Translations under genes and position numbers: made by a program | Part shown: positions 1 through 34,874 of the stretch, in pieces | Position numbering within the stretch: position 1 is the first letter of the stretch | Layout: each line of letters starts with the position of its first letter | UHGV virus genome: UHGV-0344222 | Origin: a virus | Length of the DNA stretch: 39,491 nt | Direction: 5' to 3' (one strand) | Notes under the pieces: generated by a model | The model's database searches: none | The model's input: the letters and a program-made list of their open reading frames with translations, nothing else | What the model was told of the DNA's origin: nothing

Positions 1-148
1 AACTTCAAGTTTCGTGGAATTGACCAAGTCTATAACGCACTGGCTCCGGCGCTGGTTAATCACGGACTTCTTATCCTCCCCCGCATCACTGAGCGCACCG
101 TAACCGAGCGCACGACCCCAAAAGGCACTGTCCTGTTCTAGGTGGTGG
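1..148. repeat. Inverted duplicate of an internal segment of the ERF-like gene; reverse complement of about 324-473 with one mismatch
   Basis: Plus strand 1-143 translates to NFKFRGIDQVYNALAPALVNHGLLILPRITERTVTERTTPKGTVLF then TAG, the same peptide encoded on the minus strand at 324-473; the mismatch turns a Tyr codon into TAG. Repeat is cut by the window edge. Confidence 0.85.
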
Positions 149-566
149 TTACATCAATCGCTGTTTCTTCTGTCGGGATGCAGAACGCCTGAAACGCTGC
201 GTATTTGTAGGCAATCGACATGGCCTTGTTCGTTGCCTTGTCGCCGCTATCCATCGCTTCGCCGTATGTCACAACCGTGTGAACGCTGCCGTCCTTTGTG
301 CTCACAAAGTCGAACTCTGCTTTAACCACCACATAGAACAGGACAGTGCCTTTTGGGGTCGTGCGCTCGGTTACGGTGCGCTCAGTGATGCGGGGGAGGA
401 TAAGAAGTCCGTGATTAACCAGCGCCGGAGCCAGTGCGTTATAGACTTGGTCAATTCCACGAAACTTGAAGTTTTGCTGTGTGTTCGTCCTGTCCTTGCT
501 TATGCCGGTAGTCGCCATTTCCTTGGCTACTGCGCTGATTGCCTGATAAACAAGCTTATCTGTCAT
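138..566 (-). CDS. ERF-family single-strand annealing (recombination) protein, putative
   Basis: Motifs resemble P22 Erf as I recall it (NFKFRGID...; ...AYKYAAFQAFCI). ATG at 566 overlaps the upstream stop (ATGA); the longest ORF extends to a GTG at 593. Confidence 0.55.
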   Translation of the reverse strand: MTDKLVYQAISAVAKEMATTGISKDRTNTQQNFKFRGIDQVYNALAPALVNHGLLILPRITERTVTERTTPKGTVLFYVVVKAEFDFVSTKDGSVHTVVTYGEAMDSGDKATNKAMSIAYKYAAFQAFCIPTEETAIDVTTT

Positions 567-706
567 GAGTAATTCCCCGCGAACTCTTGCCACGTGATTG
601 GCTGATTCATTCGTTCAGCCGCTAGGTTAATTTGCTGCTCTACCTCTTCTTCAATTTCAGGAGAAATGAGAGCGATGAAATCGTCGTCTTCTAATTCATG
701 CAGCAT
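563..706 (-). CDS. Small strongly acidic hypothetical protein (47 aa from internal ATG; longest ORF 563-817)
   Basis: ORF track 563..817; plausible start MLHELEDDD...; stop overlaps the ERF-like start. No strong SD seen. Confidence 0.3.
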   Translation of the reverse strand: MLHELEDDDFIALISPEIEEEVEQQINLAAERMNQPITWQEFAGNYS

Positions 707-884
707 GTTTTTTGTTCCAGTCGTCGTCCTGAATATCATTCCATCCCATCGCGATTTCCCACGCCCATTCATAGGCTGAGTGGCGTCCTTCATCCGTATC
801 CGGGAATGCAGCTTCATAGAGCTTGTTGAACTCGCGGTTACCTTGTTGAACCAGAATGGTTCCGTTAACTGGCAAAATAGTCAT
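696..884 (-). CDS. Hypothetical early-left operon protein (62 aa)
   Basis: ORF track 696..1001 begins with TTG; in-frame ATG at 884 with GGAG about 11 nt upstream gives MTILPVNGT... Confidence 0.35.
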   Translation of the reverse strand: MTILPVNGTILVQQGNREFNKLYEAAFPDTDEGRHSAYEWAWEIAMGWNDIQDDDWNKKHAA

Positions 885-1085
885 AACGCGGCACTCCGGG
901 TTGAGAGAGGATGTCGGCCAGCTTTTTCCAGCCAGTGCGTAACTTGCGTGTGATGCGATCGAGAAGTGATTCAGAGCAGCCCACAACAGGCCACCCTGCA
1001 AAAGCGAACTGTTGCATGGTGTTATCCTTGGTTAATTGGCATAGCGAAAAGGCCGCGCTAATAAGCAGCCTTGTTGATATGCAGG

Positions 1086-1110
1086 CGAAAAAAAGCCCTC
1101 CGTAGAGGGC
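1086..1110 (-). terminator. Rho-independent terminator candidate in the early-left operon
   Basis: GCCCTC-CGTA-GAGGGC hairpin (1095-1110) followed on the minus strand by a 7-T run (plus-strand A-run 1088-1094). Confidence 0.55.
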
Positions 1111-1223
1111 GAACAGACAACAAGGGTTATTTCTCCATTTAACCAGAACAGGTCTTCGTCTCCTGTCTTGGTTATGATGCGGATTGCATCAGATAACCGA
1201 CTCTATGAATCGGCTATCGGCTG

Positions 1224-1469
1224 CTATTCAGCACTTTCAGCGAAGTCCTCGATTAGCTCATCCAGGCAATCGTCAGTCATGGCATCCATTCCCTGTGCTC
1301 GCTGCATGACTTCAATCGCATCGTCTGGTGAGAGGTCAACTGCAACCAGAAACTCAGCAACGGCAAGCTTTGCAACGTAATATTCATTCTCCTGCATGCA
1401 CTGGCTGAACACTGCGCTTACTGCACTTGTTAACCTGATCATCAGGTCATTGTTATCGCAACCTTCCAT
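1224..1469 (-). CDS. Strongly acidic 81-aa hypothetical protein
   Basis: ORF MEGCDNND...DDCLDELIEDFAESAE; 19 Asp/Glu versus 3 Arg/Lys by my count; ATG immediately follows the upstream stop. Confidence 0.5.
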   Translation of the reverse strand: MEGCDNNDLMIRLTSAVSAVFSQCMQENEYYVAKLAVAEFLVAVDLSPDDAIEVMQRAQGMDAMTDDCLDELIEDFAESAE

Positions 1470-1631
1470 TCACTCCTCCTCGCCGATGGCTTTAGCTTGC
1501 GAGCATTCATCATCAATGTCATAAATGTCGTGATAGCATTCGTGGCACAGCTCTTCATTGCCATCGCCACTGTAAACGGCAACCGCAGCAACCCCTTTGC
1601 CGCATACGTCGCATTCGACTTCCTCATCCAT
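1470..1631 (-). CDS. 53-aa CxxC...CxxC zinc-ribbon-like small protein (below the ORF-track cutoff)
   Basis: Manual translation of the minus strand: MDEEVECDVCGKGVAAVAVYSGDGNEELCHECYHDIYDIDDECSQAKAIGEEE; stop directly abuts the next ATG. Confidence 0.4.
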   Translation of the reverse strand: MDEEVECDVCGKGVAAVAVYSGDGNEELCHECYHDIYDIDDECSQAKAIGEEE

Positions 1632-1673
1632 ATCTCATCTCAGATAAGTGGCTTGCCCAAAAAGAAAGGCCGA

Positions 1674-1868
1674 CTATGCGGCCTTTAGTTTTTCCAGTTC
1701 TCTTTCAATCATTGCGGTGGTTCTTATTGCCCATTTATCGACATATTTCCCATCCTCCATTACAAGAAACATTTCATCAGGCTTAATCATGCATTCCGAT
1801 TGAAGCTGGCATCCATTGCATCGTTTGAATTGTCCACACCATTGATTTTTATCAATAGTCGTAGTCAT
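1674..1868 (-). CDS. ral: Ral restriction-alleviation protein
   Basis: MTTTIDKNQWCGQFKRCNGC... matches lambda Ral as I recall it; position between N/sieB and the early-left genes. Confidence 0.85.
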   Translation of the reverse strand: MTTTIDKNQWCGQFKRCNGCQLQSECMIKPDEMFLVMEDGKYVDKWAIRTTAMIERELEKLKAA

Positions 1869-2062
1869 ACGGATAGTCCTGGTACTGTTCCATTACATCC
1901 TGCGGATGCTCTTCGAACTCTTCAAATTCTTCTTCCATATATCACCTTAAATAGTGGATTGCGGTAGTAAAGATTGTGCCTGTCTTTTAACCACATCAGG
2001 CTCGGTGGTTCTCGTGTACCCCTACAGCGAGAAATCGGATAAACTATTACAACCCCTACAGT

Positions 2063-2617
2063 TTGATGAGTATAGAAATGGATCCACTCGTTATTCTCGG
2101 ACGAGTGTTCAGTAATGAACCTCTGGAGAGAACCATGTATATGATCGTTATCTGGGTTGGACTTCTGCTTTTAAGCCCAGATAACTGGCCTGAATATGTT
2201 AATGAGAGAATCGGTATTCCTCATGTGTGGCATGTTTTCGTCTTTGCTCTTGCATTTTCGCTAGCAATTAATGTGCATCGATTATCAGCTATTGCCAGCG
2301 CCAGATATAAGCGATTTAAGCTAAGAAAACGCATTAAGATGCAAAACGATAAAGTGCGATCAGTAATTCAAAACCTTACAGAAGAGCAATCTATGGTTTT
2401 GTGCGCAGCCCTTAATGAAGGCAGGAAGTATGTGGTTACATCAAAACAATTCCCATACATTAGTGAGTTGATTGAGCTTGGTGTGTTGAACAAAACTTTT
2501 TCCCGATGGAACGGGAAGCATATATTATTCCCTATTGAGGATATTTACTGGACTGAATTAGTTGCCAGCTATGATCCATATAATATTGAGATAAAGCCAA
2601 GGCCAATATCTAAGTAA
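2063..2617 (+). CDS. sieB: SieB superinfection-exclusion (abortive infection) membrane protein
   Basis: 184-aa ORF with hydrophobic N-terminal segments, convergent with and abutting N, as sieB is in lambda. Confidence 0.65.
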   Translation: MMSIEMDPLVILGRVFSNEPLERTMYMIVIWVGLLLLSPDNWPEYVNERIGIPHVWHVFVFALAFSLAINVHRLSAIASARYKRFKLRKRIKMQNDKVRSVIQNLTEEQSMVLCAALNEGRKYVVTSKQFPYISELIELGVLNKTFSRWNGKHILFPIEDIYWTELVASYDPYNIEIKPRPISK

Positions 2618-2941
2618 CTAGGTAAGAGGAATCGATTTTCCCTTAATTTTCTGGCGTCCACTGCATGTTATGCCGCGTTCGCCAGGCTTGCTGTACCATG
2701 TGCGCTGATTCTTGCGCTCAATACGTTGCAGGTTGCTTTCAATCTGTTTGTGGTATTCAGCCAGCACTGTAAGGTCTATCGGATTTAGTGCGCTTTCTAC
2801 TCGTGATTTCGGTTTGCGATTCAGCGAGAGAATAGGGCGGTTAACTGGTTTTGCGCTTACCCCAACCAACAGGGGATTTGCTGCTTTCCATTGAGCCTGT
2901 TTCTCTGCGCGACGTTCGCGGCGGCGTGTTTGTGCATCCAT
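2618..2941 (-). CDS. N: Antitermination protein N
   Basis: From the ATG at 2941 the protein reads MDAQTRRRERRAEKQAQWKAANPLLVGVSAKPVNRPILS..., matching lambda N (107 aa); the ORF track extends further upstream. Confidence 0.92.
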   Translation of the reverse strand: MDAQTRRRERRAEKQAQWKAANPLLVGVSAKPVNRPILSLNRKPKSRVESALNPIDLTVLAEYHKQIESNLQRIERKNQRTWYSKPGERGITCSGRQKIKGKSIPLT

Positions 2942-3051
2942 CTGGATTCTCCTGCCAGTTAGCTTTGAGTAACGCGCCGTGATGCTTATCTCCACGGTTG
3001 CTGTCTTGCAGCTGCATTTCGCGCTACTCAAAGCCTTCTGCTTTGAATGCT

Positions 3052-3083
3052 GCCCTTCTTCAGGGCTAAATTTTTAAGAGCGT
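3052..3083 (-). promoter_or_regulatory. nutL (boxA CGCTCTTA and boxB GCCCTGAAGAAGGGC on the minus strand)
   Basis: Reverse complement of 3052-3083 gives boxA/boxB upstream of N. Confidence 0.8.
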
Positions 3084-3121
3084 CACCTTCATGGTGGTCA
3101 GTGCGTCCTGCTGATGTGCTT

Positions 3122-3185
3122 AGTATCACCGCTAGTGGTATTTATGTCAACACCGCCAGAGATAATTTATCACCGCAGATGGTTA
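3122..3185 (-). promoter_or_regulatory. pL promoter with operators OL1 (3124-3140), OL2 (3148-3164), OL3 (3169-3185)
   Basis: 17-bp operators recognisable; -35 TTGACA (rc of 3145-3150) and -10 GATACT (rc of 3122-3127). OL1 has one substitution versus reference lambda. Confidence 0.85.
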
Positions 3186-3340
3186 TCTGTATGTTTTTTA
3201 TATAGATTTATTTTTTGCAGGGTTGTGTGGATTGGGAAGGTGATCGAGAGATCTGAATTGCGATGTTTAGTGAGTTGTATCTATTAATTTCCAAATAAAT
3301 ACAATTGGTTATGTGTTCTTGGGTGAGGGGGATCGTGAGG

Positions 3341-3367
3341 CAAAGAAAACCCGGCTCTGTGGCCGGG
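3341..3367 (-). terminator. Rho-independent terminator downstream of the cI operon (t-imm-like)
   Basis: CCCGGC-TCTGTG-GCCGGG hairpin followed on the minus strand by a T-rich run, directly after the stop of the 3376..4137 gene. Confidence 0.6.
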
Positions 3368-3375
3368 AATAACAT

Positions 3376-4137
3376 TTAGGAATCAAGGTCAGGTAGCATG
3401 ATTTTCTCAATCAACGTCAATGCCCTTTGGTCTCGTTCAGCAAAATATTTAGGAGCGTACTGAGGCAGCCACACTTCGTTGAAGTGTTGTTTGAAATCTG
3501 CAAGATATTCGTTTGGGTATAGACGTACCGGGAATGTCCGGCCATCTGGGTACTCATGGTTATATGTTGGGAATGTCTTCGGCTCAACCCCCCGGTTGTC
3601 ACGGAGCCATTGCGAGAAAACCCTACCCTCTGAAATATCAGGGACCATTTTTTCTGGCAGCGTATATCCGGCCTGTTCAAGTGGCGCAACCAAGTTAAAC
3701 GTCAGTTCATTAAGCATAGAAAAGTGCGTATGAGGAACTCTGCCTCGGTTTGTCATATACCGCTTAAGGTGGATAGGGAGTTCGGCAGGCGCTCTTTCAC
3801 CTGACATCCACTCACGCACCCATCTCGATACTTGCACTGCAAATTTTGGAGATAGCCACTGAGCTAAATTAATTGCGATGTCTGGATGAACCCAAGTCCC
3901 TTGATTCTCTGCTCTTCCGCCTTTAAATGATTGAATTAACTCCGATATGGGAATCCCCATATCGCGTGATAATTCATCAAAAAAATCTTGTGTTGTTTTT
4001 AGTCGTGTATAGTCAGCAAGTAGCTTCCCCGCAGACTTGCACATCGCGGTGGCATTGATGTATCCGTCTTTGGTGCGAAGATGGATGACTTCTCCATCAA
4101 CTTCTCTAGCGATTAATGCAAGTTGAAACTGTGTCAT
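3376..4137 (-). CDS. KilA-N domain protein at the rexAB-equivalent locus (BstA-like abortive-infection candidate)
   Basis: 253 aa; N-terminal KilA-N-type motifs (DGYINAT..., GTWVHPDIAINLAQWLSPKFAVQVSRWV); starts 31 bp after the cI stop, same strand, ends at the t-imm-like terminator. Confidence 0.75.
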   Translation of the reverse strand: MTQFQLALIAREVDGEVIHLRTKDGYINATAMCKSAGKLLADYTRLKTTQDFFDELSRDMGIPISELIQSFKGGRAENQGTWVHPDIAINLAQWLSPKFAVQVSRWVREWMSGERAPAELPIHLKRYMTNRGRVPHTHFSMLNELTFNLVAPLEQAGYTLPEKMVPDISEGRVFSQWLRDNRGVEPKTFPTYNHEYPDGRTFPVRLYPNEYLADFKQHFNEVWLPQYAPKYFAERDQRALTLIEKIMLPDLDS

Positions 4138-9276: not shown

Positions 9277-9636
9277 AATACCTACAGCATCGCATTACCC
9301 TGGCCTCCGAGCAATAACCGCTACTACCGGCATAATCGCGGGCGCACGCACATCAGCGCAGAAGGGCAGGCATACCGCGATAACGTCGCTCGAATCATTA
9401 AAAACGCAATGCTGGATATCGGCCTGGCTATGCCTGTGAAAATCCGCATTGAGTGCCACATGCCGGATCGCCGTCGCCGTGACCTGGATAATCTGCAAAA
9501 AGCCGCTTTTGACGCACTCACTAAAGCAGGTTTCTGGCTGGATGATGCTCAGGTCGTTGATTACCGCGTTGTGAAGATGCCTGTTACCAAAGGTGGGAGG
9601 CTGGAACTGACCATCACCGAAATGGGGAATGAATGA
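9274..9636 (+). CDS. rusA: RusA Holliday-junction resolvase
   Basis: 120 aa, GTG start; matches DLP12 RusA as I recall it. Confidence 0.93.
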
Positions 9637-9773
9637 TGTTTGAGTTTAATATGGCAGAACTTCTTCGCCACCGCTGGGGGCGTCTGCGCTTATATCGTTT
9701 CCCCGGTTCTGTTTTGACCGATTACCGAATACTGAAGAATTACGCCAAAACACTGACAGGAGCAGGAGTATGA
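9633..9773 (+). CDS. ylcG: YlcG-like small protein (46 aa)
   Basis: Manual translation [46 protein letters not shown]; ATGA overlap with the rusA stop. Confidence 0.6.
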
Positions 9774-9858
9774 AGTCAGAGATAACAATCAACTAATACT
9801 GTTTTGTTGATTTTTGCTTGTAATTGGCGTTCTGGTCTGAGTTTTGTGGAGTAAGTTG

Positions 9859-10242
9859 ATGCGTGATATTCAGATGGTTCTTGAGCGTTGGGGAGCGTGG
9901 GCGGCTAATAATCATGAAGATGTGACCTGGTCGTCCATTGCCGCCGGTTTTAAGGGATTAATTACTTCAAAAGTAAAATCTCGCCCGCAATGTTGTGACG
10001 ATGACGCGATGATCATTTGCGGGTGCATGGCCCGTCTGAAAAAGAACAACAGCGATTTGCACGATTTATTAGTAGATTATTATGTAGTCGGTATGACATT
10101 CATGTCACTGGCAGGTAAGCATTGCTGCTCTGATGGTTATATCGGGAAAAGGTTACAGAAGGCTGAGGGCATAATTGAAGGGATGTTAATGGCATTAGAT
10201 ATCCGGTTAGAGATGGATATCGTTGTTAATAACTCTAATTAA
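9859..10242 (+). CDS. quuD: Late-gene antiterminator Q (QuuD / phage-82 type)
   Basis: [34 protein letters not shown]... 127 aa. Confidence 0.88.
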
Positions 10243-10269
10243 TACGCCAATTATTTACTAAAAGTTATT

Positions 10270-10415
10270 AAAAATGGGGCGTTGAAACGCCCCCAAAAAT
10301 AAAGGGTAATATATAACAGAAGGTTTGTATAGTTAGAAGCAAGGTTGTGCTTCTAAAGGAAGTGGCTTGAGGGAGCCACTTATATGTTGGGGAGGCAAAG
10401 CCTCCCACAACATAT
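10270..10415. other. Cluster of four stem-loops between Q and the porin gene (candidate pR'/tR' region and nmpC terminator)
   Basis: Hairpins at about 10275-10293 (GGGGCGTT/AACGCCCC), 10333-10354, 10363-10382 and 10385-10412. Confidence 0.5.
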
Positions 10416-10430
10416 CTTTTAGTAATCAAA

Positions 10431-11513
10431 TTAGAACTGGTAAACCATACCTACAGCAACGATATCATCGGTAGCAACGCCAGATGCTTTCGTGAAATCG
10501 CTCTTATCAATCAGGTTGATTTTGTAGTCAACAAAAGTGGACATATTTTTGTTGAAGTAATAGGTTGCACCTACATCAACATATTCAACCAGGTCCTGAT
10601 CACCCCAAACACCCAAGTCTTTTCCTTTAGAATGCAGGTAAGCAACGGATGGACGCAGGCCGAAGTCGAACTGATATTGTGCAACAGCTTCGAAGTTTTG
10701 TGCTTTGTTGGCAATATGGTTATTACCAAAAACAGTCATGTTCTGGGTTTCAGAATAGGTGGTGGCCAGATAGATGTTGTTCGCATCATATTTCAGACCA
10801 GCTGCCCATACTTCAGCATTTTGACCAGAAGCATTCAGACCGTTGTTACCGTAGATAACCTGATTATTAGTGCGATCAGATTTAGCATAGGTTGCACCCA
10901 CGCCGAATCCTTCATACTCATAAGTAGTTGAGAAACCGAAACCATCGCCATTAGCTTCAGTTACTTCATTTCGGTCATTTTTGCCCTGATACTGAGCTGC
11001 AAAGTTCAGGCCATCAACCAGACCAAAGAAGTCGTTGTTACGATAAGTTGCAACACCTGTGGTGCGACCAGTCATGAATACATCTGTTTGGGTCCAGGTA
11101 TCGCCACCGAATTCTGGCAGAACGTCAGTCCACGCACCGATGTCGTATGCTACACCGTAGTTACGGCCGTAATCGATTGAGCCGTAGTCACCGAATTTCA
11201 GGCCTGCAAATGCAAGACGGGTTTTGTCTTTGGAGGAACCTTGAGATTCAGCGCGGTTGCCTTTGAATTCATATTCCCACTGACCGAAACCAGTCAGTTG
11301 ATCGTTGATTTGGGTTTCACCTTTGAAGCCAAGACGGGCATAAGTAGTATCACCATCATCTGCATCATTAGAGGAGAAGTAGTGCTTAGCATTAACTTTC
11401 CCGTACAGATCCAGCTTGTTACTGTCTTTATTATAAATTTCAGCTGCCTGAGCAGACATCGCCATCAGTACTGATGCAGCTACAGCAGAAATTGCCACTG
11501 TTAATTTTTTCAT
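10431..11513 (-). CDS. nmpC: Outer-membrane porin (OmpC/NmpC family), apparently intact
   Basis: 360 aa with signal peptide [23 protein letters not shown] and C-terminal ...MVYQF. Confidence 0.92.
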
Positions 11514-12101
11514 CGTGAGCCCTTTTTTTTGAACTATTATTAAAAAATGATGTCACTGCGCGATAAATATTCATCTAATCAATGTGATTATTTCAAGATG
11601 TAAGTTTTAGTTTCTCATTTAATTTGTGAAGTAGATCTCTATTTTTATCTGAACTTTTTCTATCGAAACCTATTTATGGCTCTTATTTGAACAAAAATAA
11701 ACCTATTAGCTAATTTATATTAATGGCTGTTATTTATGGGGGTTCTATAATTCGGCAGTTTAATTTAAATCAACTAAAAATAACCTCTGAAATTATTTAT
11801 TGGTTATTTGTTGAGGTTTTTTTATGTATTTGTGGTGGTGTTTTGAACACTCGGTAGCATTCTCATAAATATCATTCAGTGGTTTACGTACGTAAAAAAT
11901 TGGTTATGCTGTTAAGAGTGGTTACTTCGTCACACAGCTTAAACCCGCCGTCGAGCTGGTTTTTCCATTTTTTGAGTCTCGATATTAGCTGATAACTCAA
12001 TACCTGAGTTATTCACTGACTCCGAGTCTGTTACGTTTCTGCTTTTTTGCGATACGTTGTATTCCCTCAATTTACACCCGCTTTGTCTGCGAGGTGGGGT
12101 T

Positions 12102-12317
12102 ATGAAATCCATGGATAAGTTAACAACGGGTGTCGCCTATGGCACCTCAGCAGGTAGTGCCGGTTACTGGTTTTTACAGCTGCTCGATAAAGTCACGCCC
12201 TCACAGTGGGCAGCAATAGGTGTGCTGGGTAGCCTGGTATTTGGCCTGCTGACGTACCTGACAAACCTTTATTTCAAGATTAAAGAAGATAAGCGCAAGG
12301 CTGCGAGAGGTGAATAA
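12102..12317 (+). CDS. essD: Class II holin (phage-21 S-type pinholin) with dual start MKSM
   Basis: [31 protein letters not shown]... 71 aa. Confidence 0.9.
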
Positions 12318-12814
12318 TGCCTCCATCATTACGAAAAGCCGTTGCTGCTGCTATTGGTGGCGGAGCAATTGCTATAGCATCAGTGTTAATCACTGGCCCA
12401 AGTGGTAACGATGGTCTGGAAGGTGTCAGCTACATACCATACAAAGATATTGTTGGTGTATGGACTGTATGTCACGGGCATACAGGAAAAGACATCATGC
12501 TCGGTAAAACGTATACCAAAGCAGAATGCAAAGCCCTCCTGAATAAAGACCTTGCCACGGTCGCCAGACAAATTAACCCGTACATAAAAGTTGATATACC
12601 GGAAACAACGCGCGGCGCTCTTTACTCGTTCGTCTACAACGTGGGTGCTGGCAATTTCAGAACATCGACGCTTCTTCGCAAAATAAACCACGGTGATATC
12701 AAAGGCGCATGTGATCAGCTACGTCGCTGGACATATGCTGGCGGTAAGCAATGGAAAGGTCTCATGACTCGTCGTGAGATTGAGCGTGAAATCTGTTTGT
12801 GGGGTCAGCAATGA
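12317..12814 (+). CDS. rrrD: SAR endolysin (lysozyme with N-terminal signal-anchor-release domain)
   Basis: 165 aa; Gly/Ala-rich N-terminal TMD then lysozyme E...D...T catalytic region. Confidence 0.92.
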
Positions 12815-13248
12815 ACAGAGTAACCGCGATTATCTCCGCTCTGGTTATCTGCATCATCGTCTGCCTGTCATGGGCTGTTAATCATTACCGTGATAACGCC
12901 ATGACCTACAAAGAACAGCGCGACAAAGCCACATCCATCATCGCTGACATGCAGAAGCGTCAACGTGACGTAGCAGAACTCGATGCCAGATATACAAAGG
13001 AGCTTGCTGATGCTAACGCGACTATCGAAAGTCTCCGTGATGATGTTTCTGCTGGGCGTAAGCGGCTGCAAGTCGCCGCCTCCTGTGCAAAGTCAAAGAC
13101 CGGAGCCAGCAGCATGGGCGATGGAGAAAGCCCAAGACTTACAGCAGATGCTGAACTCAATTATTACCGTCTCCGAAGTGGAATCGACAGGATAACCGCG
13201 CAGGTTAACTACCTGCAGGAGTACATCAGGACGCAATGTCTGAAATAA
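12811..13248 (+). CDS. rzpD: Rz i-spanin
   Basis: [23 protein letters not shown]...; ATGA overlap with the endolysin stop. Confidence 0.85.
13010..13195 (+). CDS. rzoD: Rz1 o-spanin lipoprotein embedded in Rz (+1 frame)
   Basis: [20 protein letters not shown] with lipobox, Pro-rich mature part; AAGGA 8 nt upstream of the ATG at 13010. Confidence 0.7.
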
Positions 13249-13452: not shown

Positions 13453-13974
13453 ATGAATATCGTGCCACTTAATTACAAAGGTGAAATTGTCAGTTTCAAC
13501 ACTGATGGTTGGATCAACGTCACAGGTGTTGCTGAGAGATTTGGGAAACGCATTGATAACTGGATGCGTTTGGCAGAAACGCTTGAATACGTTCGTGCTT
13601 TAGACGAAGCGTTGACCGGGAAAGAATCTCAAATTTTACATCCCTCACAATCGAGGTATGTAAAAACCAGCAAGGCACGAAAGGACAGGGGTGGTGGTAC
13701 GTGGCTACATCCAAAACTTTCAGTTGCATTTGCCCGTTGGTGTGATGCTCGTTTTGCTGTGTGGTGCGACCTGCACATTGATAGTCTGCTTCGCGGTGAA
13801 CTGACTGAGCAGCAGAAATATGAGCAAGCATGTCGCATTCGCGATGACCGGAAATCAAAAGCCAGCAATGGGGCAAGAGAGATGGCTCGCTGGCGATGGG
13901 ATAAGCCGGTTATTGAAGCAAATGTTGAGTACTGGCGCGAGCAACTGCAGTTGACTCTCGATATCGCGTGCTGA
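13453..13974 (+). CDS. KilA-N domain protein (second copy of the fold; antirepressor- or exclusion-like) at the bor-equivalent locus
   Basis: 173 aa; motifs DGWINVTGVAERFGKR... and GGTWLHPKLSVAFARWCDARFAVWC. Confidence 0.75.
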   Translation: MNIVPLNYKGEIVSFNTDGWINVTGVAERFGKRIDNWMRLAETLEYVRALDEALTGKESQILHPSQSRYVKTSKARKDRGGGTWLHPKLSVAFARWCDARFAVWCDLHIDSLLRGELTEQQKYEQACRIRDDRKSKASNGAREMARWRWDKPVIEANVEYWREQLQLTLDIAC

Positions 13975-14323: not shown

Positions 14324-14734
14324 TTAGTGCGGAAATATTTGTGTAGTGTTCTGAATGTTCTCAGTAAAGAGTAATGAATTATCAAAGGTATAGTAATACC
14401 TTTTGTTTTCGTGGATATTTGTAATCCATCTGAAAACCCCTGCTGTAGCAAGATTTTTCCTGTATTCGTAAAATGATAACTCTCCTGATTTGAATCCTTT
14501 TAATGTGGCTTCTATAAGGCATTTATTTTTTGAAAATCTTACATTTACAACCTTACCCTGTCCTTTTATTAAAACCGTATTATCGTTTTCAAGAACAAGA
14601 TGAATATTCTCTGTGGCTAAATAGTAAATGTAATGTGAGACATTGTGACGTTTTAGTTCAGAATAAAACCAGTGATAGTTTAAATTATTTCGCACTTTAT
14701 CGAATATTTGTTTAAAAATGGCAACCTGAGCCAT
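14324..14734 (-). CDS. Conserved lambda right-end protein of unknown function (137 aa)
   Basis: [11 protein letters not shown]... with GGAAGG SD; resembles the lambda right-arm ORF as I recall it. Confidence 0.7.
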
Positions 14735-14791
14735 TGTAGTACCTTCCATGTGATATGAGGGTACCTAGTCTGCACGATTATCTAAATTGCT

Positions 14792-24930: not shown

Positions 24931-25353
24931 ATGTTCCTGAAAACCGAATCATTTGAATATAACGGTGTGAGCGTCACGCTTTCTGAACTGTCAGCCCTGC
25001 AGCGAATTGAGCATCTCGCCCTGCTGAAACGACAGGCAGAACAGGCGGGATCCAGTCTCAATCGATAGGTGAGCGTGGAAGATCTCGTCAGAACCGGTGC
25101 TTTTCTGGTGGCGATGTCCCTGTGGCATAGCCATCCGCAGAAGACAAAGATGCCGTCCATGAATGAAGCCGTTAAACAAATTGAGCAGGAAGTGCTTACC
25201 ACCTGGCCCACAGAGGCAATTGCTCAGGCTGAAAATGTGGTAATGCGTCTGTCCGGTATGTCTGAGTTTGTTGTAAATGATGCCCCTGAACAGGCAGAGG
25301 ACGCCGGGCCTGCAGAGCCTGTTTCTGCGGGAAAGTGTTCGACGGTGAGCTGA
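24931..25353 (+). pseudogene. G: Tail assembly chaperone G interrupted by an in-frame TAG at codon 46 (25066-25068)
   Basis: MFLKTESFEYNGVSVTLSELSALQRIEHLALLKRQAEQAGSSLNR* then VSVEDLVRTGAFLVAM... in the same frame; slippery site G GGA AAG at 25329-25335 intact. Confidence 0.85.
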
Positions 25354-25769
25354 GTTTTGCCCTGAAACTGGCGCGTGAGATGGGGCGACCTGACTGGCGC
25401 GCCATGCTTGCCGGGATGTCATCCACGGAGTATGCCGACTGGCACCGCTTTTACAGTACCCATTATTTTCATGATGTTCTGCTGGATATGCACTTTTCCG
25501 GGCTGACGTACACCGTACTCAGCCTGTTTTTCAGCGATCCGGATATGCATCCGCTGGATTTCAGTCTGCTGAACCGGCGCGAGGCTGACGAAGAGCCTGA
25601 AGATGATGTGCTGATGCAGAAAGCGGCAGGGCTTGCCGGAGGCGTCCGCTTTGGCCCGGACGGGAATGAAGTTATCCCCGCTTCCCCGGATGTGGCGGAC
25701 ATGACGGAGGATGACGTAATGCTGATGACAGTATCAGAAGGGATCGCAGGAGGAGTCCGGTATGGCTGA
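25335..25769 (+). CDS. T: T portion of the G-T tail assembly chaperone (made by -1 frameshift from G)
   Basis: -1 frame ORF MFDGELSFALKLAREMGRPDWRAMLAGMSSTEYADWHRFY... following the slippery heptamer. Confidence 0.8.
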   Translation: MFDGELSFALKLAREMGRPDWRAMLAGMSSTEYADWHRFYSTHYFHDVLLDMHFSGLTYTVLSLFFSDPDMHPLDFSLLNRREADEEPEDDVLMQKAAGLAGGVRFGPDGNEVIPASPDVADMTEDDVMLMTVSEGIAGGVRYG

Positions 25770-28323
25770 ACCGGTAGGCGATCTGGTCGTTGATTTGAGT
25801 CTGGATGCGGCCAGATTTGACGAGCAGATGGCCAGAGTCAGGCGTCATTTTTCCGGTACGGAAAGTGATGCGAAAAAAACAGCGGCAGTCGTTGAACAGT
25901 CAATGAACCGGCAGGCGCTGGCTGCACAGAAAGCGGGGATTTCCGTCGGACAGTATAAAGCCGCCATGCGTATGCTGCCTGCACAGTTCACCGACGTGGC
26001 CACGCAGCTTGCAGGCGGGCAAAGCCCGTGGCTGATCCTGCTGCAACAGGGGGGTCAGGTTAAGGACTCCTTCGGCGGGATGATCCCCATGTTCAGGGGG
26101 CTTGCCGGTGCGATCACCCTGCCGATGGTGGGGGCCACCTCGCTGGCGGTGGCGACCGGTGCGCTGGCGTATGCCTGGTATCAGGGCAACTCAACCCTGT
26201 CCGATTTCAACAAAACGCTGGTCCTTTCCGGCAATCAGGCGGGACTGACGGCAGATCGTATGCTGGTCCTGTCCAGAGCCGGGCAGGCGGCAGGGCTGAC
26301 GTTTAACCAGACCAGCGAGTCACTGACGGCGCTGGTGAATGCCGGTGTGCGTGGTGGTGAGCAGTTTGAGGCGATCAGCCAGAGTGTGGCGCGTTTCTCC
26401 TCTGCATCCGGCGTGGAGGTGGACAAGGTCGCTGAAGCCTTCGGGAAGCTGACCACAGACCCGACGTCGGGACTGACAGCGATGGCACGTCAGTTCCATA
26501 ACGTGACGGCGGAGCAGATTGCGTATGTTGCTCAGTTGCAGCGTTCCGGAGATGAAGCCGGGGCATTGCAGGCGGCGAACGAGGCCGCAACGAAAGGGTT
26601 TGATGACCAGACCCGACGCCTGAAAGAGAACATGGGCACGCTGGAAACCTGGGCAGACAGGACAGCACGGGCATTCAAATCCATGTGGGATGCGGTGCTG
26701 GATATTGGTCGTCCTGATACCGCTCAGGAGATGCTGATTAAGGCAGAGGCTGCGTTTAAGAAAGCAGACGACATCTGGAATCTGCGCAAGGATGATTATT
26801 TTGTTAACGATGAAGCGCGGGCGCGTTACTGGGATGATCGTGAAAAGGCCCGTCTTGCGCTTGAAGCCGCCCGAAAGAAGGCTGAGCAGCAGACTCAACA
26901 GGACAAAAATGCGCAGCAGCAGAGCGATACTGAAGCGTCACAGCTGAAATATACCGAAGAGGCGCAGAAGGCTTACGAACGGCTGCAGACGCCGCTGGAG
27001 AAATATACCGCCCGTCAGGAAGAACTGAACAAGGCACTGAAAGACGGGAAAATCCTGCAGGCGGATTACAACACGCTGATGGCGGCGGCGAAAAAGGATT
27101 ATGAAGCGACGCTGAAAAAGCCGAAACAGTCCGGCGTGAAGGTGTCTGCGGGCGATCGTCAGGAAGACAGTGCTCATGCTGCCCTGCTGACGCTTCAGGC
27201 AGAACTCCGGACGCTGGAGAAGCATGCCGGAGCAAATGAGAAAATCAGCCAGCAGCGCCGGGATTTGTGGAAGGCGGAGAGTCAGTTCGCGGTACTGGAG
27301 GAGGCGGCGCAACGTCGCCAGCTGTCTGCACAGGAGAAATCCCTGCTGGCGCATAAAGATGAGACGCTGGAGTACAAACGCCAGCTGGCTGCACTTGGCG
27401 ACAAGGTTACGTATCAGGAGCGCCTGAACGCGCTGGCGCAGCAGGCGGATAAATTCGCACAGCAGCAACGGGCAAAACGGGCCGCCATTGATGCGAAAAG
27501 CCGGGGGCTGACTGACCGGCAGGCAGAACGGGAAGCCACGGAACAGCGCCTGAAGGAACAGTATGGCGATAATCCGCTGGCGCTGAATAACGTCATGTCA
27601 GAGCAGAAAAAGACCTGGGCGGCTGAAGACCAGCTTCGCGGGAACTGGATGGCAGGCCTGAAGTCCGGCTGGAGTGAGTGGGAAGAGAGCGCCACGGACA
27701 GTATGTCGCAGGTAAAAAGTGCAGCCACGCAGACCTTTGATGGTATTGCACAGAATATGGCGGCGATGCTGACCGGCAGTGAGCAGAACTGGCGCAGCTT
27801 CACCCGTTCCGTGCTGTCCATGATGACAGAAATTCTGCTTAAGCAGGCAATGGTGGGGATTGTCGGGAGTATCGGCAGCGCCATTGGCGGGGCTGTTGGT
27901 GGCGGCGCATCCGCGTCAGGCGGTACAGCCATTCAGGCCGCTGCGGCGAAATTCCATTTTGCAACCGGAGGATTTACGGGAACCGGCGGCAAATATGAGC
28001 CAGCGGGGATTGTTCACCGTGGTGAGTTTGTCTTCACGAAGGAGGCAACCAGCCGGATTGGCGTGGGGAATCTTTACCGGCTGATGCGCGGCTATGCCAC
28101 CGGCGGTTATGTCGGTACACCGGGCAGCATGGCAGACAGCCGGTCGCAGGCGTCCGGGACGTTTGAGCAGAATAACCATGTGGTGATTAACAACGACGGC
28201 ACGAACGGGCAGATAGGTCCGGCTGCTCTGAAGGCGGTGTATGACATGGCCCGCAAGGGTGCCCGTGATGAAATTCAGACACAGATGCGTGATGGTGGCC
28301 TGTTCTCCGGAGGTGGACGATGA
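25762..28323 (+). CDS. H: Tail tape-measure protein H
   Basis: 853 aa, lambda gpH-like. Confidence 0.97.
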   Translation: MAEPVGDLVVDLSLDAARFDEQMARVRRHFSGTESDAKKTAAVVEQSMNRQALAAQKAGISVGQYKAAMRMLPAQFTDVATQLAGGQSPWLILLQQGGQVKDSFGGMIPMFRGLAGAITLPMVGATSLAVATGALAYAWYQGNSTLSDFNKTLVLSGNQAGLTADRMLVLSRAGQAAGLTFNQTSESLTALVNAGVRGGEQFEAISQSVARFSSASGVEVDKVAEAFGKLTTDPTSGLTAMARQFHNVTAEQIAYVAQLQRSGDEAGALQAANEAATKGFDDQTRRLKENMGTLETWADRTARAFKSMWDAVLDIGRPDTAQEMLIKAEAAFKKADDIWNLRKDDYFVNDEARARYWDDREKARLALEAARKKAEQQTQQDKNAQQQSDTEASQLKYTEEAQKAYERLQTPLEKYTARQEELNKALKDGKILQADYNTLMAAAKKDYEATLKKPKQSGVKVSAGDRQEDSAHAALLTLQAELRTLEKHAGANEKISQQRRDLWKAESQFAVLEEAAQRRQLSAQEKSLLAHKDETLEYKRQLAALGDKVTYQERLNALAQQADKFAQQQRAKRAAIDAKSRGLTDRQAEREATEQRLKEQYGDNPLALNNVMSEQKKTWAAEDQLRGNWMAGLKSGWSEWEESATDSMSQVKSAATQTFDGIAQNMAAMLTGSEQNWRSFTRSVLSMMTEILLKQAMVGIVGSIGSAIGGAVGGGASASGGTAIQAAAAKFHFATGGFTGTGGKYEPAGIVHRGEFVFTKEATSRIGVGNLYRLMRGYATGGYVGTPGSMADSRSQASGTFEQNNHVVINNDGTNGQIGPAALKAVYDMARKGARDEIQTQMRDGGLFSGGGR

Positions 28324-34274: not shown

Positions 34275-34874
34275 ATGCGTAAACTTTATGCCGCCATTTT
34301 GTCCGCAGCCATCTGTCTGGCCGTATCCGGTGCGCCTGCATGGGCGTCTGAACATCAGTCCACGCTGAGCGCGGGCTATCTTCATGCCTCGACGAACGTT
34401 TCCGGCAGCGATGATCTGAACGGGATTAACGTGAAATACCGTTATGAGTTTACGGACACGCTGGGAATGGTGACGTCATTCAGCTATGCAGGAGACAAGA
34501 ATCGCCAGCTTACCCGTTACAGCGATACCCGCTGGCATGAAGATTCCGTGCGTAACCGCTGGTTCAGCGTAATGGCGGGGCCGTCTGTGCGCGTGAATGA
34601 ATGGTTCAGCGCGTATGCGATGGCGGGTGTGGCTTACAGCCGTGTGTCGACTTTCTCCGGGGATTATCTCCGCGTAATTGACAACAAGGGGAAAACGCAC
34701 GACGTGCTGACCGGAAGTGATGACGGTCGCCACAGCAACACGTCTCTGGCGTGGGGAGCTGGCGTGCAGTTTAACCCGACCGAATCCGTGGCCATTGATA
34801 TTGCTTATGAAGGCTCCGGCAGTGGTGACTGGCGCACTGACGGTTTCATCGTGGGTGTCGGTTATAAATTCTGA
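34275..34874 (+). CDS. lom: Lom outer-membrane protein (Ail/OmpX family)
   Basis: 199 aa with signal peptide [24 protein letters not shown] and ...[11 protein letters not shown]-terminus. Confidence 0.9.

Follow-up and report, generated by a model that had tools for sequence, protein, structure and literature searches.

Results

Gene organization of the prophage and position of the porin gene

The window analysed in the present study, a stretch of 39,491 nt taken as a whole, is a lambda-like prophage. Genes for an Erf-like recombinase, SieB, an N-like antiterminator, a BstA-like protein, a CI-type repressor and a CII-like activator were observed among its early and replication genes, together with ORFs at the O and P positions. 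Beyond the early genes lie the nin region, Q, the lysis cassette and Lom, and long rightward ORFs occupy the positions of the lambda head and tail genes. Between Q and the lysis cassette, a porin gene is located on the opposite strand, and the genes of this part of the prophage are as follows:

9859..10242, plus strand: Q antiterminator of the quuD type, 127 aa from ATG (Pfam PF06530, E=4e-53)
10431..11513, minus strand: porin gene of the NmpC/Lc/'OmpD' type, 360-aa precursor (Pfam, NCBIfam, PHROG and PDB-chain alignment)
12102..13248, plus strand: lysis cassette (ORF calls and Pfam; essD/rrrD in RefSeq relatives), comprising the next three genes
12102-12317, plus strand: S21-type holin with the dual start MKSM
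12317-12814, plus strand: lysozyme
12799-13248, plus strand: Rz

The mechanically called ORF of the Q gene begins at a TTG codon at 9844.

A preliminary description of this DNA had presented the porin gene as a unit inserted antisense between quuD and the holin gene, and the gene calls and Pfam neighbours bear out this arrangement. Judged from sequence comparison, a porin cassette of ~1.65 kb (about 10226-11880) is inserted between Q and the late promoter pR'. Several properties of a moron were simultaneously observed in this cassette, including a terminator, a predicted promoter, insertion between elements that are adjacent in relatives, and a deviant base composition, with flanks of 25-29% GC. 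In addition, the cassette lies on the opposite strand between Q and the holin gene inside a lambdoid prophage, and it is closely identical to nmpC of DLP12 and the DNA around it (92% for the protein and 95-97% for the flanks), as expected of an NmpC/Lc porin cassette.

Porin gene and protein

The porin ORF (minus strand, 10431-11513) starts with ATG and continues uninterrupted for 360 codons. The product matched Pfam Porin_1 (PF00267) at 337 of the 337 profile positions (E=3.6e-152, 507 bits compared with a cutoff of 23.7) and PHROG 410 at 360 of 360 positions. The cutoff of the NCBIfam OmpC subfamily was just exceeded (515 vs 484 bits), and the scores for the PhoE and OmpF equivalogs of NCBIfam were below their cutoffs. 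Residues 24-360 aligned with the solved chains of OmpC, OmpK36 and PhoE (E about 1e-135). General porins are characterized by a cleavable signal peptide, the constriction motif PEFGG in loop 3 (L3) and an aromatic residue at the C-terminus. In the translated gene, residues 1-23 form the signal peptide, with cleavage between SAQA and AEIYNK, and the mature PDB chains begin to align at residue 24; the L3 motif is present in the form LPEFGGDTW, and the protein ends in VGMVYQF. A trimeric 16-stranded beta-barrel fold is implied by the alignment of residues 24-360 with the solved chains. The uninterrupted ORF, the full Pfam match and the score above the OmpC subfamily cutoff confirm that the gene encodes an intact NmpC/OmpC-family porin with a signal peptide, as had been proposed earlier.

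The codon adaptation index of the porin gene, calculated with approximate codon weights, was 0.56, compared with 0.16-0.40 for all other genes in the window, including the ORF in the major-capsid position. The highest codon adaptation in the window is what would be expected of a gene built for high expression. The copies of the porin in phages were 84-98% identical to the window porin, and the full-length ORF was kept across lineages. When seven copies were compared, the differences were clustered in a few short blocks, and the remainder of the protein was nearly invariant.

Upstream region of the porin gene

The preliminary description had reported a 590-bp AT-rich region upstream of the porin. 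This description applies to 11514-11880, which has 27.5% GC and represents ~370 bp of regulatory DNA 5' of the porin; from ~11880 to 12101, however, the GC content is 44-47%, and these last ~220 bp belong to the pR', tR' and holin leader region. The following features were assigned to the AT-rich part:

11568..11596, minus strand: predicted sigma-70 promoter of the porin gene, with -35 TTGAAA (11596-11591), a 17-nt spacer and a weak -10 TGAATA (11573-11568)
11625..11640, strand not assigned: putative CRP-like site TGTGAAGTAGATCTCT (TGTGA-AGTAGA-TCTCT), proposed from the alignment with the P1-like copy
11641..11880, strand not assigned: AT-rich distal upstream DNA with three TTATTTATGG-like copies, the least conserved part of the cassette (82-93%)

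From the predicted promoter, we infer a transcription start at about 11561 and a 5' UTR of about 48 nt. The promoter block is the best conserved part of the upstream DNA (99% among lambdoid copies), and the divergent P1-like copy retains TTGAAA and the spacing. A perfect CRP consensus, TGTGATTTTGATCACA, is present in the P1-like copy in register with 11625-11640 of the window, and the CRP-like site is centred at about -71.5 from the predicted start, which corresponds to a class I position. Catabolite repression has been reported for the PA-2 porin and for Salmonella OmpD. The weak -10 element, the CRP-type site and the AT-rich surroundings fit a conditional expression of the porin.

The reiterated TTATTTATGG-like motifs noted earlier in the upstream DNA were found again, and their number is beyond chance. 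Copies with one mismatch or none are located at 11670, 11730 and 11793, with spacings of 60 and 63 bp, and none of 1000 local dinucleotide shuffles of the AT-rich stretch reached three copies; in the whole window, 7 matches were observed compared with 1.85 expected. Every copy is altered in four of the five lambdoid relatives. The copies were considered as sites for a regulator and, being enriched yet not conserved, were assigned no function.

A generic promoter scan picked up neither the porin promoter nor pR'. The scan demanded 9-of-12 hexamer matches, and each of the two promoters has 4/6 plus 4/6. Because both fall under this requirement, the result was rejected as a negative test, and the homologue of pR' is an annotated promoter in Stx phages.

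The upstream DNA also bears on whether the porin is produced. The gene might be intact and effectively silent in the lysogen, a quiescent cargo under AT-rich silencing with little phenotypic effect, and the weak -10 element and the 27.5% GC of the upstream DNA are compatible with this possibility, as are the toleration of the K-12 copy as an IS5-disrupted pseudogene and the title of one paper, in which nmpC is named a "quiescent porin gene" in E. coli B. However, the full-length ORF has been kept at 84-98% identity across phage lineages with differences in few short blocks, the codon adaptation of the porin is the highest in the window, and both the promoter block and the CRP-type site are conserved. 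We regard a silent porin as rather unlikely.

Structured region 3' of the porin gene

Four stable hairpins are located between Q and the porin stop codon, with stems at 10276-10293, 10333-10356, 10360-10381 and 10382-10415. When the minus-strand RNA of this region was folded, the minimum free energy (MFE) was -70 kcal/mol, compared with a mean of -36 for shuffled sequences (z=-8.95), and none of 200 shuffles was as good. The features of this region are as follows:

10268..10434, minus strand: structured 3' UTR of the porin transcript, identified as the IpeX small-RNA region of ~167 nt, with three hairpins and an intrinsic terminator (fold, DLP12 identity and literature)
10276..10293, minus strand: predicted intrinsic terminator of the porin/IpeX transcript, GGGGCGT-TTCA-ACGCCCC followed by AUUUUUAAUA (terminator scan; -13.9 kcal/mol)
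10382..10415, read on the plus strand: strong hairpin followed by CUUUUAGU (-22.7 kcal/mol, z=-6.15)

In the terminator scan, a T-run on the minus strand was observed only after the hairpin at 10276-10293, which is the one farthest from the porin stop codon. The distance from the stop codon to this T-run (10434 to 10268) is 167 nt. IpeX is described in passages of reviews as a 167-nt RNA of DLP12, also attributed to PA-2, which is processed out of the porin transcript and represses OmpC and OmpF. The region in the window lies directly 3' of the porin stop codon on the same strand as the porin, has a length of ~167 nt, ends at an intrinsic terminator, and is 97% identical to the nmpC-quuD intergenic DNA of the K-12 prophage DLP12, the locus where IpeX was defined. 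Because of this position, the length, the DLP12 origin and the identity to DLP12, the hairpin cluster is identified as the IpeX region together with the cassette terminator, and the exact RNA ends are predicted on the same grounds. An Rfam search of 9500-12500 at E<=1 returned no match; since Rfam has no IpeX family, the identification was made through homology and literature. Thus, the four-hairpin cluster of the preliminary description is present as such, but it is really an IpeX-type 3' UTR with the terminator of the cassette.

The porin 3' region of the P1-like phage JL22 keeps the four-hairpin layout with changed stem sequences (z=-6.1), and the evidence for covariation of the structure comes essentially from this one divergent sequence. 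On the plus strand, the hairpin at 10382-10415 has a bulged stem and was not reported by the terminator scan; it might act as a weak terminator for unmodified early pR transcripts that leave Q.

The cluster could also be read as a simple stack of terminators, or as a bidirectional insulator between Q and the porin, that yields no regulatory RNA. The first hairpin is indeed a minus-strand terminator, the last one is followed by CUUUUAGU on the plus strand, and the Rfam search gave no family match. In contrast, neither of the two middle hairpins is followed by a T-run in either orientation, although both are kept with changed stems in P1-like copies, and the region shares 97% identity with the DLP12 DNA reported as the source of the 167-nt IpeX. 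These observations argue for an IpeX-type 3' UTR and make a cluster without a regulatory RNA improbable.

Q and the late promoter region

The amino acid sequence of the window Q is 78% identical to Q of VT1-Sakai and 85% identical to Q of PhiR55_1. All three proteins diverge just past RLEMD, and beyond this point the three lineages differ in that no insert is present in the Stx phages, another minus-strand ORF is present in PhiR55_1, and the porin is present in the window. In PhiR55_1, Q is followed by this different ORF of 148 aa and then by the same pR'. Reading a Q-binding site off the Q21 structures was considered and dropped, since QuuD is only remotely related to the crystallised Q21 (E=7e-7).

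A search with 11850-12100 revealed that 11882-11964 is 76-77% identical to a stretch in several hundred records of Stx phages, which starts ~44 bp past the point where their Q match ends. Three records with independent annotation place the late promoter pR', the Q-utilisation site and a rho-independent terminator of the pR' transcript in this stretch. The corresponding features of the window are as follows:

11883..11910, plus strand: putative late promoter pR', with -35 TTTACG (11883-11888), a 16-nt spacer and -10 TATGCT (11905-11910); start at about 11917
11913..11932, plus strand: initial transcribed block, TAAGAGTGGTTAC, invariant in all relatives
11942..11965, plus strand: putative tR' terminator of the short pR' transcript, aligned with annotated terminators

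The promoter was aligned column by column with the annotated pR' of the Stx phages 06-3462, Ss-VASD and VT1-Sakai; the -10 element is TATGCT in the window, compared with TATCAT in Stx phages. The block at 11913-11932 spans the stretch aligned with the 8 bp annotated as the Q-utilisation site in VT1-Sakai and is the probable region of pausing and Q loading. In tR', a change from G to T at 11956 breaks the canonical stem, and an alternative 6-bp stem precedes the U-run; the MFE is -8.4 kcal/mol in the window compared with -13.9 in K-12. The same variant at 11956 is carried by phage PhiR29_2. Thus, the window contains homologues of the promoter, the Q-utilisation region and the terminator that accompany a closely related Q, and the ~1.65 kb of the cassette separates them from the Q gene.

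In the canonical late cassette, pR' comes immediately after the Q gene, and a pause element and a terminator come next. The target of Q is the promoter-proximal complex, and the adjacency of Q and pR' is thus customary and not required. Published work on the lysis operon of DLP12 treats it as a unit with a promoter region of its own and with control by Q. Based on homology, the late control region of the window belongs to the Q933W/H-19B/DLP12 type, with two departures: it lies apart from Q, and tR' has the stem-breaking change.

The preliminary description had concluded that Q-dependent late transcription must cross the porin gene in antisense. Under that model, pR' would directly follow Q, the hairpins would form its terminator region, and the Q-modified polymerase would run antisense through the porin to the holin gene, in agreement with the canonical order and with the stable hairpins that do come after Q. 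However, only 27 nt separate the Q stop codon from the first hairpin, the 9-of-12 consensus scan gave no promoter-like site in the plus-strand interval from the Q stop to the porin (10243-10430), and three of the four hairpins have no T-run on the plus strand. Moreover, the homologue of the pR'/qut/tR' region of closely related Q genes is located past the porin, at 11883-11965. Because the pR' homologue (11883-11910) is located beyond the right end of the cassette and points toward the holin gene, Q-dependent transcription would bypass the porin, and the crossing of the porin by Q-modified polymerase is very improbable. From the position of this homologue, the Q-dependent start is predicted ~370 bp upstream of the porin start codon, with transcription heading away from the porin. 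Only early pR transcription that reads through past the end of Q could cross the porin in antisense.

Distribution of the segment

Among 5426 complete E. coli genomes, 2393 matched at least 80% of the segment 9800-12400, the genes being annotated as quuD, porin OmpC, essD and rrrD. The segment was also observed in 36 phage records, in which the porin is labelled OmpD, OmpC or NmpC. Records with exactly this layout, such as ev099, PhiR34_1, D2 and Chlobot, have been deposited as phage genomes, several of the deposits with a named propagation host. P1/P7-like phages contain the same porin with its 3' hairpins at a genome position unrelated to this one, and so do 113 plasmid records. The porin of P1-like phages was dropped as a new observation, the nmpC gene being already annotated there in phage P7.

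Discussion

Thus, the porin locus of this prophage is not new in kind; it is the long-known NmpC/Lc porin locus of many lambda-like E. coli prophages, and the value of the re-analysis is that the intactness of the gene was confirmed, the hairpins were named and the transcription model was corrected. Herein, we propose that the element is a self-contained lysogenic-conversion cassette (moron) of the NmpC/Lc type, located in the gap between Q and its target pR', and we consider this explanation very probable.

First, in the lysogen, the cassette would be transcribed leftward from its own weak predicted sigma-70 promoter with the aid of CRP, and the AT-rich DNA around this promoter is probably subject to silencing. 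The 360-aa precursor would be exported, cut after Ala23 and assembled as a general-diffusion porin. Second, the porin transcript would run on through three stable hairpins to the intrinsic terminator. The 3' part of this transcript would be the counterpart of IpeX, which in the DLP12/PA-2 relatives is processed out and lowers OmpC and OmpF. In other words, the net outcome may be that the phage porin replaces the host porins, resulting in changed permeability and in the removal of phage receptors. Third, during lytic growth, the early pR transcript would supply Q, and Q would act in trans on polymerase that has begun at pR' (about 11917), ~1.65 kb to the right of the Q stop codon. The polymerase would then pass tR' into the holin, lysozyme, Rz and morphogenesis genes, away from the porin. 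With the late promoter downstream of the cassette, late transcription and the porin gene would not inherently conflict.

The intact copy suggests that the lysogen may display a phage-encoded major porin and have reduced OmpC and OmpF, which bears on antibiotic permeability and on the susceptibility to phages that use OmpC or OmpF. Given the literature on close relatives, it is plausible that lysogeny alters the outer membrane and the phage receptors by way of the porin and IpeX. The gap between Q and pR' appears as a recurrent slot for cargo. Beyond the correct annotation, the importance of these results is small.

We also considered a broader hypothesis, in which the porin together with its promoter and 3' RNA would constitute a discrete "porin-swap" module exchanged among unrelated temperate phages (lambdoid and P1/P7-like lineages), the lambdoid slot ranging from codon ~120 of Q to the -35 element of pR'. 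In such a module, the hairpins may insulate in both directions, and the phased TTATTTATGG copies and the weakened tR' could tune expression or leakage. If this were true, the hairpin stack would block unmodified early transcripts from pR' and the lysis genes and would keep porin transcripts from Q, and the window-specific TTATTTATGG copies together with the weak tR' could tune the expression of the porin or the leakage of the lysis genes in this prophage. We regard this hypothesis as speculative and, taken as a whole, unlikely.

Among the closest known systems is the cryptic prophage DLP12 (qsr') of E. coli K-12, in which the same order of rusA-ylcG-quuD, nmpC on the minus strand and essD-rrrD-rzpD is observed. 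The two loci are 97% identical in the nmpC-quuD intergenic DNA, 95% in the nmpC-essD intergenic DNA and 92% in the porin protein. However, IS5 interrupts nmpC of DLP12 close to its 3' end, and the gene carries a pseudogene annotation, whereas the window copy is unbroken. The window also differs from DLP12 in the residues of a few short porin blocks, in a 16-bp extra segment before the holin gene and in the G to T change in tR'; moreover, the window element resembles a complete lambda-like prophage, whereas DLP12 is a remnant. A second system, compared by description, is the lc porin (protein 2) of the lambdoid phage PA-2 with IpeX, a porin that the prophage expresses in the lysogen and for which OmpC and OmpF are lowered by a 3' RNA.

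In Stx phages of the 933W, H-19B and VT1-Sakai type, Q is 78% identical, and the -35 and -10 elements of pR', the TAAGAGTGGTTAC block and the terminator are homologous to those of the window. The Q ORF of these phages extends into pR', with its stop codon between the -35 and -10 elements, and their cargo (tRNAs and stx) is located downstream of tR' and is Q-dependent. In contrast, Q of the window is shortened after LEMD, and ~1.65 kb of cargo, which would be independently transcribed, lies before pR'. The nmpC gene of P7/P1-like phages encodes a porin with 84% identity (JL22) and is accompanied by a promoter-like block, a CRP consensus and a four-hairpin 3' region; it sits between ssb and hxr in a different type of phage, and its DNA is ~75% identical. 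Finally, OmpC, OmpF, PhoE and Salmonella OmpD belong to the same Pfam family as the window porin, which differs from these chromosomal porins in being phage-borne and in having a different regulatory region.

Discussion

The gap between the antiterminator gene Q and the late promoter pR' is a recurrent cargo slot (1540-2600 in locus L004 of Escherichia phage PhiR55_1; approximately 1200-1600 in the further loci L002, L003 and L010). The porin occupies this gap in DLP12-type phages, and in PhiR55_1 the same gap holds an unrelated minus-strand ORF of 148 aa, for which a Pfam match was not obtained. Stx phages carry no cargo between Q and pR', and their Q overlaps pR'. The divergence of all three Q genes (Stx, PhiR55_1 and DLP12-type) begins directly after ..RLEMD.

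An 84%-identical porin was also observed in P1/P7-like phages and in 113 plasmid records, flanked by ssb and hxr; its nmpC annotation is already present in P7. This locus lies at:

JL22 (P1-like phage), 2400-4100
P7 (AF503408), 25298-26999

Because the P1/P7-like copies carry a perfect CRP site and a 3' region of four hairpins, the porin appears to move between phage types together with its promoter and 3' RNA.

Additional defence-type cargo, SieB and a KilA-N gene with a BstA-family match, was observed in the immunity region; other accessory genes follow the lysis cassette and also occur in the tail region:

2063-2617, plus strand, SieB superinfection-exclusion gene
3376-4137, minus strand, KilA-N protein with a BstA abortive-infection family match
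13453-13974, plus strand, accessory KilA-N protein
14324-14749, minus (opposite) strand, accessory ybcV-like DUF1398 gene, 31.5% GC
34275-34874, plus strand, accessory Lom

The terminator tR' (11942-11965) carries G to T at 11956 (GCGGG to GCTGG) compared with K-12 and most relatives, and phage PhiR29_2 shares this variant. The canonical stem is lost in the window copy (MFE -8.4 vs -13.9 kcal/mol), and the variant could permit leakier lysis-gene expression without Q. The 16-bp segment CTGCTTTTTTGCGATA (12043-12058), between tR' and the holin, is missing in K-12 DLP12; because short ACGTT repeats border it on both sides, the sequence suggests loss from K-12 by slippage deletion. A 14-nt inverted repeat (10255-10268 / 10412-10425; 93% complementary) encloses the hairpin cluster and reaches past the terminator U-run. 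In this repeat an A-rich tract pairs with the U-run side, as is likewise the case in bidirectional terminators.
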